From a virus: DNA of 39,758 nt. A program made the translations under genes and the position numbers. Within the stretch, counting starts at the first letter, position 1. Every line of letters starts with the position of its first letter. Positions 5,631 through 39,758 of the stretch are shown here, in pieces. The notes under the pieces are model-generated. The model had not been told where the DNA came from. It made no database searches and worked only from the letters and a program-made list of their open reading frames with translations. The stretch lies in the UHGV virus genome UHGV-0465656; one strand, written 5' to 3'.

Positions 5631-5855
5631 ATGACACACATGATCTTTCGTCATGGCGACATGAAGAAGTGGAAAGGCGTTAGCTACGACTTTGAAATCG
5701 TGAAAGCCGAAGAGCTTCAGGAATATCTGGATGCTGGCTGGTTTTCACATCCTGATGACCTTTTGAAGGATGTTGCAGAGCCAGAAGAAAAACAGCGTAA
5801 AAAGCCCGGTCGAAAACCTAAGGCGGCAGCAGATGAACCTGACAACGAAGGGTGA
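5631..5855 (+). CDS. Small hypothetical protein (74 aa, charged C-terminus)
   Basis: ATG at 5631 preceded by GGAGA; in-frame part of ORF 5583..5855; overlaps gp4 start by 23 nt. Confidence 0.4.
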
Positions 5856-6333
5856 TTTAGTTCTTGCGGCATTACGTAAGCTCGGTGTGGCATCAAATGC
5901 CACGTTAACCGATGTCGAACCGCAGTCTATGGAAGATGGCGTCAACGACCTTGAAATGATGATGGCTGAATGGCTTGGCGGTGATGCGTCACCAGGTATC
6001 AACGTTGGCTACATTTTCGCTGATGCAGATGTCGCTCCAGATCCTGGCGATGAACACGGTTTATCAAATAACGCTATCAATGCCGTCATTTTCAACCTTG
6101 CCTGCCGCATTGCTCCGGATTATGCGCTGGAAGCGTCAGCAAAACTTATAACCACTGCCAGATACGGGAAAGAGCGACTCGTCAAACTGTCTGCAATGGA
6201 CAGAGCAAAAGCCGCTAAATGTAAGTCCGGTTATCCAAACCGTATGCCTGTTGGCAGTGGAAACCAGTTGGCGAAGTGGAACGGTTGGAATTACTTCCAC
6301 CGAAAGGAACCTTGCGATAATGGGAGCGAATAA
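5833..6333 (+). CDS. Head completion / tail accessory protein gp4-like
   Basis: From ATG 5833: [33 protein letters not shown].., matching recalled P22 gp4 N-terminus; gene order. Confidence 0.8.
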
Positions 6334-7751
6334 TGCCGATTCAGCAACTTCCGCTTATGAAAGGTGTCGGCAAAGACTTTAGAAACGCTGACTATATCGA
6401 CTATCTGCCAGTGAATATGTTGGCTACACCCAAAGAAATCCTCAACAGCAGCGGATATCTTCGCTCATTCCCGGGCATTGCCAAACGTTCTGATGTGAAC
6501 GGCGTATCGCGAGGCGTCGAGTACAACATGGCGCAGAATGCTGTTTATCGCGTGTGTGGTGGCAAGCTGTATAAGGGCGAAAGCGAGGTTGGTGATGTTG
6601 CCGGAAGTGGTCGCGTATCAATGGCGCATGGTCGAACATCACAGGCGGTAGGCGTTAATGGTCAACTGGTCGAGTATCGCTATGATGGCACGGTTAAAAC
6701 CGTCTCAAACTGGCCTACAGACAGCGGATTCACACAGTACGAGTTAGGTTCAGTTCGCGACATTACGCGCTTACGTGGGCGTTATGCGTGGTCAAAAGAC
6801 GGAAATGATTCATGGTTTATCACTGACCTTGAAGACGAATCGCATCCTGACCGATACAGCGCACAATATCGTGCAGAGTCGCAGCCTGACGGCATCATCG
6901 GTATCGGCACATGGCGAGACTTCATCGTCTGCTTTGGTTCATCGACGATTGAATATTTCTCCCTGACTGGCGCAACCACCGTTGGTGCTGCTTTGTATGT
7001 CGCACAGCCATCACTAATGGTGCAAAAAGGCATCGCCGGAACTTACTGCAAAACGCCGTTTGCTGATTCCTATGCGTTTATCAGCAATCCGGCAACAGGT
7101 GCTCCGTCTGTGTATATCATCGGCTCCGGTCAGGTATCACCAATAGCCAGCGCGAGCATTGAGAAAATTCTCCGCTCCTACACTGCTGATGAACTGGCTG
7201 ATGGTGTGATGGAGTCTCTGCGATTTGATGCGCATGAGCTGCTGATTATCCATCTTCCGCGCCATGTTCTCGTGTACGACGCATCTTCAAGCGCCAATGG
7301 TCCGCAATGGTGTGTGCTGAAAACAGGCCTGTATGACGATGTGTACCGCGCTATCGACTTCATTTACGAAGGCAATCAGATAACGTGTGGCGATAAGCTG
7401 GAATCGGTTATCGGCAAATTGCAGTTCGATATCAGCAGCCAGTACGACAAGCAACAGGAACACCTGTTGTTTACTCCGTTGTTCAAAGCGGATAACGCAA
7501 GAGTGTTCGACCTTGAGGTTGAATCTTCAACTGGCGTTGCGCAGTACGCTGACCGCCTGTTCCTCTCTGCAACCACTGACGGAATCAATTACGGACGTGA
7601 GCAGATGATTGAACAGAATGAACCGTTCGTTTACGACAAACGTGTTTTGTGGAAGCGAGTCGGGCGCATCAGGAAAAATGTCGGCTTCAAATTGCGCGTT
7701 ATCACGAAGTCACCTGTCACTCTGTCTGGCGCTCAGATAAGGATTGAGTAA
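6333..7751 (+). CDS. Tail hub / head completion protein gp10-like (472 aa)
   Basis: Same length as P22 gp10; position after gp4; start overlaps gp4 stop. Confidence 0.8.
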
Positions 7752-8599
7752 TGGCGGATTCGAATCTCAATGTGCCGGTAATCATTCAGGCTACACGGCT
7801 CGACACATCAGTCCTTCCACGCAATATCTTCTCGCAGTCGTATCTGCTTTACGTTATCGCACAGGGCACTGATGTTGGTAACGTGGCTAACAAGGCCAAC
7901 GAGGCCGGACAGGGCGCTTATGATGCACAAGTCAGGAACGATGAGCAGGATGTGATTCTCGCTGACCATGAGCAGCGAATTTCTGCTGCAGAAGCAACGC
8001 TTGTTAATCATGAGGAGCGAATCAGCCAGGCAGAATCAACTCTTCAGGAACATGAAACACGAATCACTCAGAATGAAAGCGATATTGCGTCGCTTGATAC
8101 CAGAGTTCAGTCGCTGGAGTCGCAGGTTTCAGACCATGAAACGCGCATTGATGCTCTGGAGTATGCAACCACACGCAAGAAGTCAGAGGTTGTTTACTCT
8201 GGCGTATCAGTAACCATCCCGACAGCGCCGACCAACCTTGTTAGCCTGCTGAAAACGCTCACGCCGTCATCCGGGACGTTGGCACCATTCTTCGACACTG
8301 TTAACAACAAGATGGTTGTGTTCAACGAGAACAAAACCTTGTTCTTCAAGTTGTCGATTGTCGGGACGTGGCCCAGTGAAACCGCCAACAGGTCAATGCA
8401 ACTAACATTTTCCGGTTCTGTTCCTGACACACTGGTAAGCAGTCGCAACTCGGCGACAACAACCGATAACATCTTGTTAGCTACGTTCTTCAGCGTGGAT
8501 AAAGACGGCTTTCTTGCCACAAATGGCAGCACGTTAACCATTCAGTCAAATGGTGCGGCGTTTACTGCCACAACCATCAAGATAATCGCGGAGCAGTAA
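7751..8599 (+). CDS. Tail needle protein (gp26-like N-terminus, heptad coiled coil, C-terminal knob-type extension)
   Basis: N-terminus [43 protein letters not shown] matches recalled P22 gp26; repeated HE.RI heptads; 282 aa versus 233 in P22. Confidence 0.85.
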
Positions 8600-13723: not shown

Positions 13724-14209
13724 TTATCTAATGTTGCTGCTACTGTTGCATGTGACGGTGTTTCCAAATCCTGAATTGCAGTTTGTATATGTGTCAACGC
13801 GTGTTGGGTAAGGTTGAGTTATAACAGGCTGGCGCGCTTTTTGCTCGATCGCTTGCATTGTGTTTACAGCCTGATAATTCAATAAAGCCTGCTGGAATGC
13901 TTGGCTTTGCGCTATTTGTTGGGCTTGTTCTTGGCTTTGTAATTGAACATAAAGATTCTGAAGCTCAAGTCTTGCCTGTGCGTCACTTATCTTGCCTTCA
14001 TCGACACCTTGCCCGAGCATCTTCGCAGCAAGGACATACAGCTTAGGTGTTGGTGCTGATGCCATGCGTGAGTCGTTCTTCACGCTGGCATCAAGGCAAT
14101 TAGCCATATCACTAAGCTTTGGATAGCGTTGTTCGCAACTTGCTTGGTAGTCACTTACTTTTGCGCATCCAGCCAGCAGAAGCGGGATAATTAACAGTGA
14201 TTTTTTCAT
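13724..14209 (-). CDS. Lipoprotein (signal peptide + lipobox LLAGC), Q-rich coiled-coil, unknown function
   Basis: MKKSLLIIPLLLAGCAK..; last gene of the mnt operon; convergent with the ejection-protein gene stop 2 bp away. Confidence 0.7.
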   Translation of the reverse strand: MKKSLLIIPLLLAGCAKVSDYQASCEQRYPKLSDMANCLDASVKNDSRMASAPTPKLYVLAAKMLGQGVDEGKISDAQARLELQNLYVQLQSQEQAQQIAQSQAFQQALLNYQAVNTMQAIEQKARQPVITQPYPTRVDTYTNCNSGFGNTVTCNSSSNIR

Positions 14210-14213
14210 ATGG

Positions 14214-14459
14214 TTAACTCTCCTTAGTTTTGCTCATGATCCCATTCATGTCTTTTGGTAGATACTTATGAATTGGCCAATCCATGAACGCAAGTGCTAG
14301 CCACGCAACCACGTTGAATCCAGGGATTGTTAAACATACCGCCATCTTCCAGTCAAAACCAGCTTTCTTAGATATTTTTAAAGCAGGTATAAAAAAGATG
14401 AAAACGAAAAAAATCACCATAATAATCAATGATAATGGCGACCCTTGTTGTTGCTCCAT
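14214..14459 (-). CDS. Small membrane protein (two predicted TM helices), unknown function
   Basis: Hydrophobic stretches LSLIIMVIFFVFIFFIPAL and VVAWLALAFMDW; AT-rich; immediately follows mnt. Confidence 0.6.
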   Translation of the reverse strand: MEQQQGSPLSLIIMVIFFVFIFFIPALKISKKAGFDWKMAVCLTIPGFNVVAWLALAFMDWPIHKYLPKDMNGIMSKTKES

Positions 14460-14461
14460 GG

Positions 14462-14704
14462 TTATCCTCCATCTCTTACACGTTTTAACACATCAATAGC
14501 TACATCAAACGCCTCTTGCTCAGACTTTGTCAGGATTCGACTACTTGAAGGTATTAGCTGCCCTTTATGAATTTTTATCCATAGTTCGATAGCTGAAATA
14601 ATCTCTGCGTTTATCGAGCGGCGATTTGTTGCAGCAATATGCGTAAGTTGCTGTTTTATCTCATCAGGCATTCTTACGTTGAATTGTGGATCATTTCTAG
14701 CCAC
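14462..14704 (-). CDS. mnt: Mnt-like ribbon-helix-helix repressor (GTG start)
   Basis: (M)ARNDPQFNVRMPDEIKQQL..NRRSINAEII resembles recalled P22 Mnt; AGGAG 6 nt upstream of GTG. Confidence 0.8.
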   Translation of the reverse strand: MARNDPQFNVRMPDEIKQQLTHIAATNRRSINAEIISAIELWIKIHKGQLIPSSSRILTKSEQEAFDVAIDVLKRVRDGG

Positions 14705-14766: not shown

Positions 14767-14797
14767 GGTACTATCAACGAGTGAAATGGAGTTGAAT

Positions 14798-14956
14798 ATG
14801 CAAGGTGCAAGAAAAATGCCTCAGTTCAATTTGCGGTGGCCTAAAGAAGTATTGGATTTGGTGCGCAAGGTAGCTGAAGAGAACGGGCGATCTGTTAACT
14901 CTGAGATTTACAAGCGAGTGTTGGACAGCCTGAAGAGAGAAGGGATAACGGTATGA
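14798..14956 (+). CDS. arc: Arc repressor (52 aa)
   Basis: MQGARKMPQFNLRWPKEVLDLVRKVAEENGRSVNSEIYKRVLDSLKREGITV, near-identical to recalled P22 Arc; below ORF-track size cutoff. Confidence 0.9.
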   Translation: MQGARKMPQFNLRWPKEVLDLVRKVAEENGRSVNSEIYKRVLDSLKREGITV

Positions 14957-15174
14957 GGTTTATTGAGGTTGATGAGATTGGCTATGAGAATGCACTTGGT
15001 AGAGGTAAATCTTTAGTTAACATTGATGGCATTGAATCGATAAGGAGTGGTGAATTTACGGAGATCAGAATGATGTCAGGCGGAATCATTCCTTGCCGTG
15101 ACTCAGTAGAGTCAATCAAATCAAAAATGAGTGGTCAGTGGCTTTATAGCTACAGTGACTTACAAAAACAGTGA
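14953..15174 (+). CDS. Hypothetical protein (73 aa) between arc and ant
   Basis: ATGA overlap with arc stop; no recognisable motif. Confidence 0.4.
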   Translation: MRFIEVDEIGYENALGRGKSLVNIDGIESIRSGEFTEIRMMSGGIIPCRDSVESIKSKMSGQWLYSYSDLQKQ

Positions 15175-15204
15175 AGCCCCAACTGCGGTAACAGTCAGGG
15201 CTTC
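15173..15204 (-). terminator. Candidate terminator hairpin for an antisense (sar-like) RNA in the orf73-ant junction
   Basis: Stem GAAGCCC/GGGCTTC with inner ACTG/CAGT; on minus strand followed by ACUGUUUUUG. Confidence 0.3.
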
Positions 15205-15236
15205 GGTATCAACAAAACTTACGAGGTATTATTGAT

Positions 15237-16127
15237 ATGTCAAGCTTAGCAAAGTCAACTGTAAATTGCACTAATAGCATCATCATTTCCGACGTCAAGA
15301 TTCATATGGATTCAGAGGGGCGTTACTCGCTTAATGACCTTCATGTAGCGTCTGGGAAGGAGGAAAAACATCAGCCAGCTTTCTTCATGCGTAGAAATGA
15401 AACTATTGAATTGATTAATGAAATTTTTAATTCTGCGAATATGCAGAATAAGAATCCCGTCATTTCTAAGAAAGGTCGATATGGTGGAACCTATGTGTGC
15501 AAGGAGCTTGTTTACTCCTACGCCATGTGGATTAGCGCAGCATTTGCGCTGAAGGTTATCCGTGCATATGACGCAATGGTTACTGCCACACAGGAGAGGA
15601 AGACTATTGGCGGTAAAACTTCAGTAGCTGAACGCACACCGCTACGCGATGCAGTAAACATGCTGGTAGGAAAGAAAGGACTTCGCTATGACGATGCATA
15701 CAATATGGTTCATCAGCGTTTTGGTATTGACAGCATTGATGAACTTTCAATTGAACAAATCCCGCTGGCCGTAGAGTACATCCACAGGGTAGTGCTTGAA
15801 GGTGAGTTCATCGGCAAACAAGAGAAGAAAGCAAACGAGCTTTCTGCAAAAGAAGCAAACAGCCTTGTATGGTTATGGGATTATGCCAACCGTTCACAGG
15901 CATTATTCCGCGAACTGTATCCGGCGCTAAAACAAATTCAATCGAACTATTCCGGCAGATGCTACGACTACGGTCATGAATTCTCGTATGTTATCGGAAT
16001 GGCGAGAGACGTTTTAATCAATCACACACGAGATGTTGATATTAATGAGCCAGACGGACCAACGAATCTTTCCGCATGGATGAGACTTAAGAATAAAGAA
16101 TTACCTCCTTCAGTACATAACTACTGA
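15237..16127 (+). CDS. Antirepressor-like protein with KilA-N-type N-terminal domain
   Basis: Position after arc as P22 ant; 296 aa; N-terminal [33 protein letters not shown]. Confidence 0.6.
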
Positions 16128-16146
16128 CAGATAACCAACGCAACGA

Positions 16147-16170
16147 CCCAGCTTCGGCTGGGTTTTTTTA
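16147..16170 (+). terminator. Rho-independent terminator (CCCAGC-TTCG-GCTGGG + T7)
   Basis: Perfect stem, TTCG tetraloop, TTTTTTTA; downstream of ant-like gene. Confidence 0.8.
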
Positions 16171-16227
16171 TGCCCAAAATTCACCGTAGCCACGCTGCGG
16201 CGATTCCTTGCATCTGGAGCAAATTAA

Positions 16228-18144
16228 ATGACAGACATTACAGCTAATGTGATTGTATCGATGCCTTCGCAACTCTTCACTATGGCTCGTTCTTTTAAAG
16301 CCGTAGCCAATGGAAAAATTTATATCGGTAAAATTGACACTGACCCGGTAAATCCCGAAAACCAGATTCAGGTTTATGTGGAGAACGAAGACGGCTCTCA
16401 CGTTCCTGTTTCGCAACCAATCATCATTAACGCTGCTGGTTACCCGGTATATAACGGACAGATTGCTAAGTTCGTAACTGTGCAATGCCATTCTATGGCT
16501 GTTTATGATGCGTATGGATCGCAGCAGTTCTATTTCCCTAATGTGCTGAAGTATGACCCTGATCAACTTTCTTCGCGCTTATCATCTGATGATGGTGCTT
16601 CTTATATTTCATTTAAGAAGCCTTATGCTGATGCTGCAACCAGAAAAGCATCTGACTACTTTAATCAGGAAATTAATGTAGATGACTTTGGTGCGTATGG
16701 CGATGCCTACTTATTGAACGGAGAAGATAACCTAAGCAAGCATGACGACACACACGCATTTCAGGCCGCTCTGATTGCTGCGTGGCGTGCAGGTGGTGTT
16801 AAAGTAGTAGCCACTCCGTGGAAAAGCTATTACATCGCCGGTAAAGTTTATGTGTTGGCTTCAGAATCTCCATCTGACATTGAAGAAACTAATTTCCCTA
16901 ATCGTCGGGTGCAAGTGATCGATTTTCAGGGCGCTCGCATCGTAGGCCGCGACGATACTTCCGACGAAAATAACGTATTCATTGAGACTGGTTATATAGC
17001 TTCTAGTGGTGCTATATCTTCTGTATTTGGAAAGTCTGGTGAAGAGTATCTAACCATAGGAACAATAATTCGCAATGCCACACTGATTAATTTCTATCAG
17101 GGGTTACGTTTGCGGAATCATGTATTTGGATGCGAGGTTACAGATATTGTTGGAGTAAATGTCCAGCAGTTGGTTTACACTCAGCGCTGCTTTTACTCTT
17201 TATTTCGCAATCTTCAGTGCAATGGTACATATACTACTGGTCTGCATCGCTATCACTTTACTGATGAATGCAACATTCAGCCATTAGTATCGGTTCACAC
17301 AGGAGAGTGTGATGTAGGTTTTAAGTTTGAAGGTGCGGTAGAGGCACTTACGCTGTTCAACTGTGGTATTGAAAGTTTTCGTACTCACGGTGTTTGGATT
17401 GCAGGTGCATATAACATCAAGTTTGATTCATGCTACATAGAGTCAAACGAAAGCAATGTGTATGGGGTTATAGCAACGAGCGCAAATAACATTACGCTGG
17501 ATAACTGCTGGATTTACGGTAGCAGTATGAAAATGTTTGGTGCATTCGACGACAATACCAACGTAAGAATTATGCCTAATAACCGTATTGGAGGAGGGGC
17601 AGTTTGGTGGGACCTTAACGAAGGGTCTCCGTACAACCTTTCCGACATTCACTGGCAAACAGATATAAAACCAGGCGGTACAACACTACCTGCTGCATCC
17701 GCTAAAGAGGCCAGCACAGTAGACCAGACTATAGTTTTCTACCACCCGGATTTAGGACTTAGTTCAGTTGTAGGGAAAGCCAAACAGACCAGTAAATACC
17801 ACCCGCAGCTTGTTAACGGCAAAATGAGTAACGGTAGCTCTGCTGCACATACAGTTGGCGCAAGTGTCTCTACAGAGGTTTCAGGTTCAGACACTAGAGC
17901 AAAATGGACAACGCAAATACAATACTCTGATACACAGCTTATTTTTTTAGCATTGAAGATAGATCATAACTTGGGGACATGGTTTTGGTTAGGTGTTGTG
18001 GCAGGAGATAAAGCGATGGTTATTTCAACATCTGATGAATCAAAGACTCCGGTTATAAGTAATGAAAATGGGTTTGTCGTAGTAGAGAGTCCGCTTCTTA
18101 TGACGCCAATAAATGTTCATGGTGGAGAAATAAGATTGCTATAG
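16228..18144 (+). CDS. Tailspike protein: conserved P22-type head-binding domain (aa 1-~110) fused to a divergent receptor-binding domain
   Basis: N-terminus [60 protein letters not shown] matches recalled P22 gp9; remainder unlike P22 and AT-richer. Confidence 0.9.
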
Positions 18145-18272
18145 TTGACAAAACTATCATCAAATTCTTAATCGATCGATGACTTACTGTGGTTGATGAG
18201 ACAAAACTGATGAACACAAAGCTTTGTACTGGACTGCAAGGCTTTGTGCTATTCGATAGTTGTTAAGGTCGC

Positions 18273-19430
18273 TCACTCTACCTTTTCATCAATCCAGTCC
18301 GCCCACCACTGCATCATTTCTCTGCGCTTATCTAGATACTGAGCATGGTTGTAAATCCCACGCACAGATCCGCCGTTGGCATGTGCCAGTTGCACTTCAA
18401 TAGCATCAGCAGGCCATTCGTGCTCGTTCATAATCGTGCTGAATTCATGCCTGAATCCGTGACCGCTTTCCAGACCTTCATAGCCGATTTGTTTGATCAC
18501 AAGCAATACCGCGTTCTCGCAGATTGGCTTCTTCTTATCGTTGCGCCCGGCAAAAACAAACTCTGATACTGGTTTAGTGATGGAGCTTAGCGTAGTGAGA
18601 AGTTCAACCACCTGGTCTGACATAGGAACAACATGAATCTTGCGTCCCTTCATCACACTGGCGTCGATAGTGATAATCCTGTTTTCAAAATCGACGTTCT
18701 TCCATTGCATGGAACGAAGCTCTTTCGTTCTTAGGGCTGTGTAGCGTAAAACTTTGGTCGCAATGAGCGATACGATGCTTCCTGAAAATGTTGCCAGTGC
18801 TTTGTTGAATGCAGGGATCTGGTCTGCTGGAAGAAACGGGAAGTTCTTCTTGCGGTATCCTTTCATGGCGTCTGCAAGGTCAGGTGCCGGGTTATATTTA
18901 GCCCTTCCGGTGACAATAGCGTAACGGAAAACCTCGCCGCATCTTCTGCGGGCTTTGTTGGCTCGCTCCATTGCACCGCGATCTTCAAATCTGCGGATTA
19001 CTTCCAACAGTTGCATCGGCTCAATATCCTGAATCTCAAGACCGCCGATGATGGGTAAAATGTCGTCATCAAACATTTTTGCAAGTTCATTTGCATAGCC
19101 TACTGACCAGACTTGCTTCTTGTGCTCGTACCATTCCTTGTAAATGGCGCTAAAGGAATTGTTGTTAGACGAAGCCTTTTTCGCTTTTACCGGATCGATG
19201 CCAACCGAGATATCTTTCCTCGCGGTCCATGCTTTATCCCTTGCCTCCTGCAAAGTCATAAGTGGATATTTTCCGACGGTCAGGATTTTCTCCTTACCGT
19301 CAATCTTGTAGCGAAGCTGCCATACCTTTTTCCCGGATACAGGGACATAAAGGTACAGGCCATTACCATCGAGAAGGCGGTATGGTTTTTCTTTCGGCTT
19401 TGCTGCTTCAATCTGCTTAACGGTGAGCAT
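18273..19430 (-). CDS. int: Tyrosine integrase, P4-type
   Basis: N-terminus MLTVKQIEAAKPKEKPYRLLDGNGLYLYVPVSGKKVWQLRYKIDGKEK typical of P4-family integrases; start at second in-frame ATG (19430). Confidence 0.85.
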   Translation of the reverse strand: MLTVKQIEAAKPKEKPYRLLDGNGLYLYVPVSGKKVWQLRYKIDGKEKILTVGKYPLMTLQEARDKAWTARKDISVGIDPVKAKKASSNNNSFSAIYKEWYEHKKQVWSVGYANELAKMFDDDILPIIGGLEIQDIEPMQLLEVIRRFEDRGAMERANKARRRCGEVFRYAIVTGRAKYNPAPDLADAMKGYRKKNFPFLPADQIPAFNKALATFSGSIVSLIATKVLRYTALRTKELRSMQWKNVDFENRIITIDASVMKGRKIHVVPMSDQVVELLTTLSSITKPVSEFVFAGRNDKKKPICENAVLLVIKQIGYEGLESGHGFRHEFSTIMNEHEWPADAIEVQLAHANGGSVRGIYNHAQYLDKRREMMQWWADWIDEKVE

Positions 19431-38299: not shown

Positions 38300-38788
38300 A
38301 TGGCAGCACCAAAGGGCAACCGATTTTGGGAGGCCCGCAGTAGTCATGGGCGAAATCCTAAATTCGAATCGCCTGAGGCGCTGTGGGCTGCTTGTTGTGA
38401 ATACTTCGAGTGGGCTGATGATAACCCGCTATGGGAGGGTAAGGTATTTTCATATCAGGGAGAAATAATTAAGGCTAATGTCCCTAAGATGCGAGCCATG
38501 ACTATTTCAGGATTGTGTACCTTCCTTGATATCACCAGGCAAACGTGGGGAACCTTCCGGTCAATGGAAGGTTTTTCTGACGTCACATCACGAGCGGAAG
38601 ACATCATCTACGACCAGAAATTTTCTGGCGCAGCCGCTGACCTTCTCAACGCTAACATCATCGCCCGTGATTTGGGCCTCAAAGAGCAGTCGCAAGTTGA
38701 AGACGTGACACCTGATAAGGGAGATCGCGATAAGCGACGCTCTCGTATCAAGGAGCTATTCAACCGTGGAACTGGACGCGATTCTTGA
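38300..38788 (+). CDS. Terminase small subunit (P22 gp3-like, 162 aa); pac site expected inside
   Basis: [99 protein letters not shown] matches recalled P22 gp3. Confidence 0.92.
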
Positions 38789-39758
38789 TAACCTGAGCGA
38801 CGAAGAGCAAATCGAGTTGCTCGAGCTACTCGAAGAAGAAGAGAACTACCGGAACACACACCTGCTATATGAATTTACGCCATACAGCAAACAGCGTGAG
38901 TTCATCGACGCCGGGCATGACTATCCAGAGCGCTGTTTTATGGCTGGTAACCAGCTTGGTAAGTCATTTACCGGTGCTGCCGAAGTCGCGTTTCACCTTA
39001 CAGGGCGTTATCCGGGCACAAAAGGCTATCCTGCTGATGGTAAATATGGCGGTGAGTGGAAAGGTAAGCGTTTCTATGAGCCTGTTGTCTTCTGGATTGG
39101 CGGCGAGACAAACGAGACGGTAACCAAAACGACTCAACGCATCCTGTGCGGTCGTATCGAAGAGAATGACGAGCCAGGCTACGGTTCCATACCGAAAGAA
39201 GACATCATTAGCTGGAAGAAGTCTCCTTTCTTTCCGAACCTTGTTGATCATCTTCTGGTTAAGCATCACACGGCTGATGGCGTTGAAGATGGCATTTCAA
39301 TCTGCTACTTCAAACCATACTCGCAAGGCCGTGCTCGCTGGCAGGGTGACACAATCCACGGCGTGTGGTTTGACGAAGAGCCACCATACAGCATTTATGG
39401 TGAAGGTCTTACCCGTACCAACAAATACGGGCAATTCTCAATTCTGACGTTTACCCCGCTTATGGGGATGTCTGACGTTGTTACCAAGTTCCTGAAGAAT
39501 CCCAGCAAGTCTCAGAAAGTGGTCAACATGACCATCTATGACGCTGAGCACTACACCGACGAGCAGAAAGAGCAAATCATCGCATCCTATCCTGAGCATG
39601 AGAGAGAGGCGCGTGCTCGCGGTATTCCTACGATGGGTAGTGGTCGAATCTTCCAGATACCGGAAGAGACGATTAAGTGTCAGCCGTTCGAGTGCCCTGA
39701 TCACTTCTACGTAATTGGCGGGATGGATTTCGGATGGGATCACCCACAGGCGCAGGTT
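38766..39758 (+). CDS. Terminase large subunit, N-terminal part (GTG start; aa 1-331), truncated by window end; continuation is the inverted segment 1234..728
   Basis: (M)[73 protein letters not shown].. matches recalled P22 gp2; absent from ORF track because it lacks an in-window stop. Confidence 0.9.

Follow-up and report, generated by a model that had tools for sequence, protein, structure and literature searches.

A two-module tailspike gene with an exchangeable receptor-binding cassette in the P22-like phage genome UHGV-0465656

The virus genome UHGV-0465656, here called the window (the whole stretch of DNA analysed, 39,758 bp), encodes a tailspike of 638 amino acids (aa) in the plus-strand open reading frame 16228-18144, which starts with ATG. 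It is very likely that this is the modular tailspike of a P22-like temperate podovirus of the Sf6 subtype, with an exchangeable cassette (aa 114-638) that binds a glycan and most probably cleaves it. Sequence comparison supports a gene of two modules with a sharp recombination boundary at codon 113. The fusion is old and common to two bacterial genera, moving as a whole gene and as a cassette, and the chimera is not an event of the window phage. The window is a near-complete genome, deposited as a metagenome contig (ENA ERZ807525 NODE_10). Its nearest relatives are the coliphages Dewey, IME10 and APC_JM3.2 and Shigella phage Sf6, with 93-97% DNA identity across the virion genes.

Two modules joined at codon 113

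The Pfam family PF09008 (Head_binding) spans aa 1-113 with its full profile (1-113 of 113, E 3.9e-66). Over these codons the gene is 82-96% identical in DNA to 29 P22-like phages, and a PDB sequence search matched the head-binding domains of P22 and Sf6 at E 1e-44 to 1e-66. Ungapped identity over aa 1-113 is 104/113 (92%) with Sf6 versus 86/113 (76%) with P22. The N-terminal module is thus of the E. coli/Shigella (Sf6-like) subtype and not that of P22 itself. Codon 87 (window 16486-16488) specifies Cys in this domain, and Gly is found in P22, Sf6 and a 99%-identical E. coli protein (P0001). A sequencing error can be dismissed, as exactly this protein, Cys included, is found again on at least 24 contigs.

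In pairwise blastn comparisons, Dewey, Sf6 and CUS-3 all lose similarity to the window at 16565. This is the end of codon 113, where NVLKYDPDQ is followed by LSSRL (aat gtg ctg aag tat gac cct gat caa, then ctt tct tcg). Among 50,697 phage records compared by megablast, 28 of the 29 that match lose similarity between gene nucleotides (nt) 329 and 342, and the 29th at nt 215. On the other side of the cassette, the match to Dewey and Sf6 sets in again at 18280, within the 3' end of the integrase gene int. At the protein level, a phmmer search of the PDB aligns the N-terminus only, to about aa 116-118 for the P22 gp9 chains and to aa 162 for Sf6 gp14, and the remaining 525 aa gave no match to the P22 receptor domain in this search. 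Likewise, single-sequence and profile searches of the PDB (the latter with the family alignment described below) matched the N-terminus and neck only, and the receptor domain showed no homology to the endorhamnosidase families of P22 gp9, compared from about aa 125, or Sf6 gp14, compared from about aa 110.

These results bear on a first-pass annotation of the window made from the letters alone. It had placed the end of similarity after NVLKYDPDQ, at about 16555-16570, and had stated that the remainder does not match the P22 receptor-binding domain; both statements hold. Its description of an N-terminus following P22 almost residue for residue was right as to the P22-type domain, but on the identities given above this wording suits Sf6 better. 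Its idea of a chimera with a host-range switch junction stands for the two modules and the sharp break, but not as an event of this phage, given the recurrence of the identical protein. A single characterised tailspike colinear along the full length, which would have spoken against a chimera, was found neither in the PDB nor in the phage records. The annotation was mistaken in calling the C-terminal part AT-richer. The G+C content (GC) is 42.8% at 16228-16566 and 42.5% at 16567-18144, both below the window mean of 47.8%; only GC at third codon positions falls, from 42.5% to 36.0%. Since overall GC is the same before and after the junction, the cassette does not stand out by composition, and a foreign origin argued from composition was dropped.

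Distribution of the fusion

At least 24 other contigs encode an identical 638-aa protein, and several of these contigs are prophages near int, yfdC and mlaA (the argW site); some contigs with the identical spike carry other neighbours in the region of the antirepressor gene ant (L013, L014). A word-indexed protein search yielded 143 relatives, most of them E. coli and Salmonella enterica proteins of 638-639 aa with PF09008 and a receptor-binding domain 94-100% identical to that of the window. Spikes whose receptor domains are 94-97% identical are present in E. coli and on several hundred Salmonella contigs. Three Salmonella sequences represent 198, 184 and 64 contigs; serovar Rubislaw is named in two records and the serovar is unnamed in most. 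Only three of 5,426 complete E. coli genomes carry DNA of the receptor-binding domain, and two contig scans of species-representative genomes, one with an alignment query and one with a single-protein query, found no relative.

The Salmonella prophages occupy a different integration site, where their spike gene is terminal and adjoins the hut operon. This gene is colinear with the window gene along the whole length at 90.5% DNA identity. Gene nt 300-600 approximately, a segment spanning the junction, are 99-100% identical between the window and the Salmonella prophages, and therefore the fusion is old and moves as a whole gene. Elsewhere, identity per 150 nt varies over 77-100% against Salmonella and 71-100% against E. 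coli EC6, so the receptor part itself is a mosaic of alleles.

Two further observations concern relatives of this spike. One 638-aa member of its 90%-identity cluster (P0121) is labelled in NCBI records both as an E. coli metagenome-assembled genome and as 'Bifidobacterium longum'; the latter label most likely reflects a mis-binned metagenome contig. In three Salmonella prophages (L016-L018) a gene for an HNH_3/AP2-domain endonuclease (L016 5478-5978, minus strand) lies, within L016 5424-6048, right at the start of the tailspike gene. The ribosome-binding site of the window and the first 14 nt are duplicated upstream of the endonuclease gene, and the spike restarts with a recoded N-terminus (MPEQLYNVVVSQPSQLF). 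The arrangement resembles the insertion of a homing endonuclease.

The receptor core on other anchors

When 1.84 billion cluster representatives were searched exhaustively with HMMER, 164 relatives came up at E <= 1e-3, only 12 of them at E <= 1e-30. Proteins of 650 aa (P0106-P0120) on contigs of 43-45 kb, of which L022 is a Kagunavirus-like siphovirus, have a receptor-binding domain 86-90% identical to that of the window on another anchor, with a weak match to PF18668 (TSP1/Gp66-N). The 520-aa second spike ('tail fiber protein') of the Slopekvirinae coliphage vB_EcoP_P64441 (68.5%) has a short N-terminus without PF09008. More distant versions are found in prophages of Proteus (49%, PF09008 anchor), of Providencia (42-44%, PF18668 in P0140 and no detected anchor in P0141) and of Vibrio and Shewanella (39-41%, PF12571 tail-collar anchor); overall, the relatives in these four genera are 35-59% identical. 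A tblastn search with the receptor-binding domain of the 50,697 phage records gave one informative match, P64441; the other matches are Vibrio, Aeromonas and Iodobacter proteins, 22-28% identical, whose function is not known.

DNA similarity between L022 and the window is limited to 16663-18092 (aa 146-622, 88%). The neck at 16567-16662 is not shared with this contig and has no DNA similarity to Dewey, Sf6 or CUS-3. The core aa 146-622 has thus moved between phage families. With these different breakpoints and other anchors, there are two nested exchange units, namely a P22-lineage cassette extending between codon 113 and the int end and, inside it, the core that crosses phage families. The gene is a clean and well-bounded example of tailspike modularity, with two nested sets of breakpoints (codon 113 and the int end in P22-like phages, aa 146 and aa 622 in siphoviruses).

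Separately, the Pfam family PF23504 ('YodE') matches the extreme C-terminus (about 46 aa) of the relatives P0138, P0139 and P0140; the window tailspike itself is not matched at E <= 1. The small-protein family YodE may derive from C-terminal fragments of tailspikes.

Predicted fold and conserved residues

As the first-pass annotation had proposed, structure prediction was combined with structure searches. An AlphaFold2 monomer model of aa 110-638, built from an alignment of 35 homologues, has a mean predicted local distance difference test score (pLDDT) of 87.2 and a predicted template modelling score of 0.74. It consists of a short helical neck at about aa 111-150 (pLDDT about 73), a cap helix at about aa 175-187, regular beta rungs at about aa 190-505, a lower-confidence connector at about aa 519-539 and a C-terminal beta-sandwich at about aa 545-637. 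The neck encoded by codons 114-145 is modelled at pLDDT 72-75 and aligns weakly with that of Sf6. Foldseek against the PDB retrieved phage beta-helix spikes at E 1e-6 to 1e-8, with Kp7 gp52, an Acinetobacter spike, HK620, CBA120 TSP2 and Sf6 at the top. The Pfam family PF13229 (Beta_helix) matches aa 374-455 just at threshold (26.0 bits versus a cutoff of 25.9). The receptor part is therefore predicted to be a right-handed beta-helix, of the fold class found in all P22-like receptor domains including those of P22, Sf6 and HK620, and it belongs to a different and unstudied sequence family. The earlier view of an unrelated receptor-binding domain is thus correct by sequence but not by fold class, and the neck and cap align weakly with Sf6 to aa 162.

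A fold search of BFVD returned uncharacterised viral proteins only and no characterised close match, and NCBIfam profiles gave no match to the receptor domain. The sole PHROGs match, phrog_17640 'tail fiber protein' (E 2.5e-9, aa 92-317 of the receptor-binding domain), is weak and generic. The receptor part contains the sequence DDFGAYGDA..., which we take to resemble the Pectate_lyase_3-type cap motif DFGAxGDG..TDDTxAxQxA (PF12708); this family was not reported even at E <= 1.

Conservation was assessed in an alignment of 15 family members down to 35% identity, with numbering converted by +109. Six acidic residues are invariant (D173, D232, E272, E372, E382 and E405), as are C379, C402, Y403, F154, Q179 and the C-terminal E634 and R636. 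E382 lies in CGIE and E405 in SCYIE, two repeats of a motif (CGxE/SCYxE) spaced by 23 residues, that is, one turn of the helix. We infer that E372, E382 and E405 are the best candidates for catalytic carboxylates.

Mode of action and receptor

By analogy with P22, Sf6 and HK620, the spike would be trimeric and present in six copies per virion. Residues 1-113 would anchor it to the gp4/gp10 tail hub, and the cassette, comprising neck, beta-helix and C-terminal beta-sandwich, would bind a host surface polysaccharide and most probably cleave it. Cleavage would bring the virion down to the outer membrane, where the needle could then trigger DNA ejection. The cassette at 16566-18279 is flanked by arms conserved in P22-like phages, the head-binding coding region and the 3' end of int, and homologous recombination in these arms could replace the receptor specificity in one step.

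The O-antigen is the receptor of P22, Sf6, HK620 and epsilon34 (PMC2629481). In E. coli HKUOPY1, an O-antigen glucosylation cluster of gtrA/gtrB-like genes (yfdG/yfdH) and a third gene lie between the spike remnant and intS (L023 6619-9226). Window 18154-18400 matches HKUOPY1 only after the gtr cluster, and the window phage is therefore without a lysogenic-conversion module at the tailspike-int site. On account of the P22-like precedents, this cluster and the allelic mosaicism of the receptor-binding domain, with the presence of Salmonella serovar Rubislaw among the carriers as a further hint, we favour the O-antigen as the rather more probable receptor.

Several points weigh against the proposed reading of the spike. 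No experimental or homology-based link to a glycan was found, and there is no characterised relative of the receptor-binding domain in the PDB, NCBIfam or the deposited phages. The typable E. coli carriers differ, EC6 having an O60-family wzm/wzt locus (with an IS1 insertion) and HKUOPY1 an O75 wzx/wzy locus. These are the two complete E. coli genomes that can be O-typed from annotation; both carry variants of about 88-90% DNA identity, and the HKUOPY1 prophage is a decayed remnant. Since their O-types differ, the host data do not point to one O-antigen. A simple O-antigen picture also sits badly with the closest cultured relative of the domain, which belongs to a capsule-targeting phage (P64441, which encodes an endosialidase). 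Inference of the receptor from host serotype was dropped, as there is no consistent O-type among carriers, and the literature on Salmonella O11 and related E. coli O-antigens yielded nothing usable.

A more specific proposal can be put forward only tentatively, and we hold it to be possible but rather doubtful. The core aa 146-622 could represent an uncharacterised depolymerase family whose E. coli/Salmonella branch recognises one glycan common to Salmonella O:11 (Rubislaw) and some E. coli, with a novel specificity and perhaps also a novel catalytic arrangement on E372, E382 and E405. If this is true, a temperate podovirus, lytic siphoviruses and a T7-like phage would reach the same cross-genus hosts by means of one cassette.

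The capsule-targeting relative leads to the alternative that the receptor domain is a depolymerase of capsule or exopolysaccharide (K-antigen, O-antigen capsule, colanic acid) and not an O-antigen endoglycosidase. We regard this as unlikely. The P22-like temperate phages named above use O-antigen; only CUS-3 departs from this, with the K1 capsule as its target. In addition, the spike type occurs with an O-antigen-modifying gtr cluster in HKUOPY1, the variation of 71-100% per 150 nt in the receptor-binding domain is more typical of serotype-specific receptors, and the corresponding domain of Dewey is unrelated in sequence. Much less probable still is an adhesin-type spike that binds its glycan and does not cleave it; down to 35% identity the family keeps six acidic residues unchanged, with three of these on successive rungs of the helix, and the other matched beta-helix phage spikes are annotated as enzymes. 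The last alternative, that the junction is an artefact of metagenome assembly or a very recent recombination confined to the window phage, would draw on the window being a metagenome contig with an inverted first 1289 nt, so that assembly errors do occur, but judged from sequence recurrence it is already refuted by the identical protein in independent samples (several of them prophages at argW), by related alleles in E. coli and Salmonella isolate genomes and by the near-identity with Salmonella prophages across the junction.

The preferred reading, a modular spike with a glycan-binding and most probably glycan-cleaving cassette, has practical bearing. Prophages of E. coli and Salmonella commonly carry this receptor-binding domain, and identification of its glycan would aid serotype-specific detection, engineered host range and tables for the prediction of serotype from spike sequence.

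Genome context

The features are collected in Table 1. The tailspike gene occupies the usual P22-like slot, with ejection-protein genes and immI/ant upstream and the integrase gene directly downstream. It thus lies in a P22-type virion gene set downstream of ant/immI, the context of a P22-like (Lederbergvirus-type) tailspike, and its predicted structure has the beta-helix receptor domain of such spikes. The tail hub and needle genes are assigned by PF11650 P22_Tail-4 (E 1.5e-58), PF11134 Phage_stabilise (E 1e-299) and PF16532 Sf6-type needle knob (E 1e-116). The integrase is called as a 385-aa PF00589 protein on contigs L010-L013 and is 97% identical in DNA to Dewey and Sf6 from 18280 on; prophage copies adjoin yfdC/mlaA and tRNA-Arg. 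The hairpin between ant and the tailspike gene would act as a terminator, judging from its position. An Rfam scan gave no match inside the tailspike gene, and the minus-strand open reading frames 16168-16566, 17443-17658 and 17739-17894 have no support except the mechanical list.

Table 1. Features of the tailspike gene and its surroundings (window coordinates)
Feature	Position	Strand	Evidence or remark
Tail hub genes (gp4-like, gp10-like) and Sf6-type needle gene	5770-8599	+	Pfam; gp4/gp10 at 5770-7751
Arc/Mnt-like genes	14462-14704 and 14786-14956		Compatible with a P22-type immI region
sar antisense RNA, upstream of ant	15170-15235	-	Rfam RF00262, 62.8 bits, E 8e-11
ant (antirepressor)	15237-16127		KilA-N and P22_AR_C domains
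Terminator-like hairpin and T-run, between ant and the tailspike gene	16145-16174	+	Consensus scan only: GACCCAGCTTCGGCTGGGTT then TTTTTATGCC
Head-binding (virion anchor) domain, codons 1-113	16228-16566	+	PF09008; putative left homology arm for cassette exchange
Neck/linker, codons 114-145	16567-16662	+	First part of the swapped cassette; specific to P22-type versions of the spike
Receptor-binding core, codons 146-622	16663-18092	+	Predicted cap helix, right-handed parallel beta-helix (about aa 190-505) and most of the C-terminal beta-sandwich
Last 16 codons and stop	18093-18144	+	Conserved C-terminal GGEIRLL motif; E634 and R636 invariant in the alignment; L022 DNA similarity ends at 18092
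Intergenic tail of the swapped cassette	18145-18279		No O-antigen conversion gene; Dewey/Sf6 similarity back only at 18280
IntS-type integrase (argW)	18273-19430	-	3' end is the putative right homology arm of the cassette

Two small genes lie on the minus strand at 13724-14459, between the gp16-like ejection gene and the immI region. They encode a 161-aa predicted lipoprotein (MKKSLLIIPLLLAGC...) without Pfam match and an 81-aa hydrophobic protein, and are possible candidates for superinfection-exclusion or 'moron' genes. At the left end, nt 1-1289 run opposite to the normal P22-like gene order. The minus-strand open reading frame 728-1501 holds the RNaseH domain of the terminase large subunit (PF17289), and the plus-strand portal frame begins only at 1250 and matches positions 209-594 of the P22_portal profile. 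Reverse-complementing 1-1289 restores a 733-aa portal frame across this second junction. After gp3 (38300-38788), the sequence for the N-terminal part of the large terminase seems to continue beyond the 3' end of the window (38790-39758). The inversion is probably an assembly artefact; if it were real, the phage would be defective.

Comparison with known systems

The Sf6 gene 14 tailspike (an endorhamnosidase; PDB 7sg7, 4urr) has the same gene position, after the ejection-protein genes and before int. Its neck and cap align weakly with the window spike, to aa 162, and beyond about this residue there is no recognisable sequence similarity, whereas the receptor part is of the same beta-helix fold class (Foldseek E 1.2e-6, template modelling score 0.49, 13% identity in the structural alignment). 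Sf6 has the conversion gene oac between spike and int, and the window phage has none. P22 gp9 (also an endorhamnosidase; PDB 8tvr, 2xc1, 1lkt) shares the PF09008 anchor ending in NVLKYDPDQ and the design of an anchor plus a beta-helix, but its receptor domain is without sequence similarity to that of the window and its length is 667 versus 638 aa.

The closest relative of the receptor-binding domain in a cultured phage is XXQ42883 of vB_EcoP_P64441 (Autoscriptoviridae, Slopekvirinae), a phage reportedly described in Virology in 2025, with its 68.5% identity extending over aa 28-524 of the domain used as query. Unlike the window spike gene, its gene follows the lysis genes of a lytic phage of the T7 supergroup that also encodes an endosialidase. 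The Kagunavirus-type spikes (Guernseyvirinae siphoviruses), whose examples are uncultured contigs only, differ from the window in virion type, anchor and breakpoints (aa 146/622 versus 113/gene end). The HK620 tailspike, CBA120 TSP1-4, Klebsiella Depo32 and K5 lyase are only 9-16% identical to the window spike and include both hydrolase and lyase chemistries; their catalytic residues are therefore not transferable.

No current concept is challenged by this tailspike. Such modularity is textbook knowledge; what is new is limited to the receptor-domain family, which is uncharacterised and distributed widely but thinly. P22-like tailspikes are similar over the head-binding aa 1-115 and not recognisably similar in their C-terminal parts (PMC2629481), and transfer of receptor-binding domains across genera in coliphages has been treated systematically by Pas et al. 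2023 (PMC10408124).
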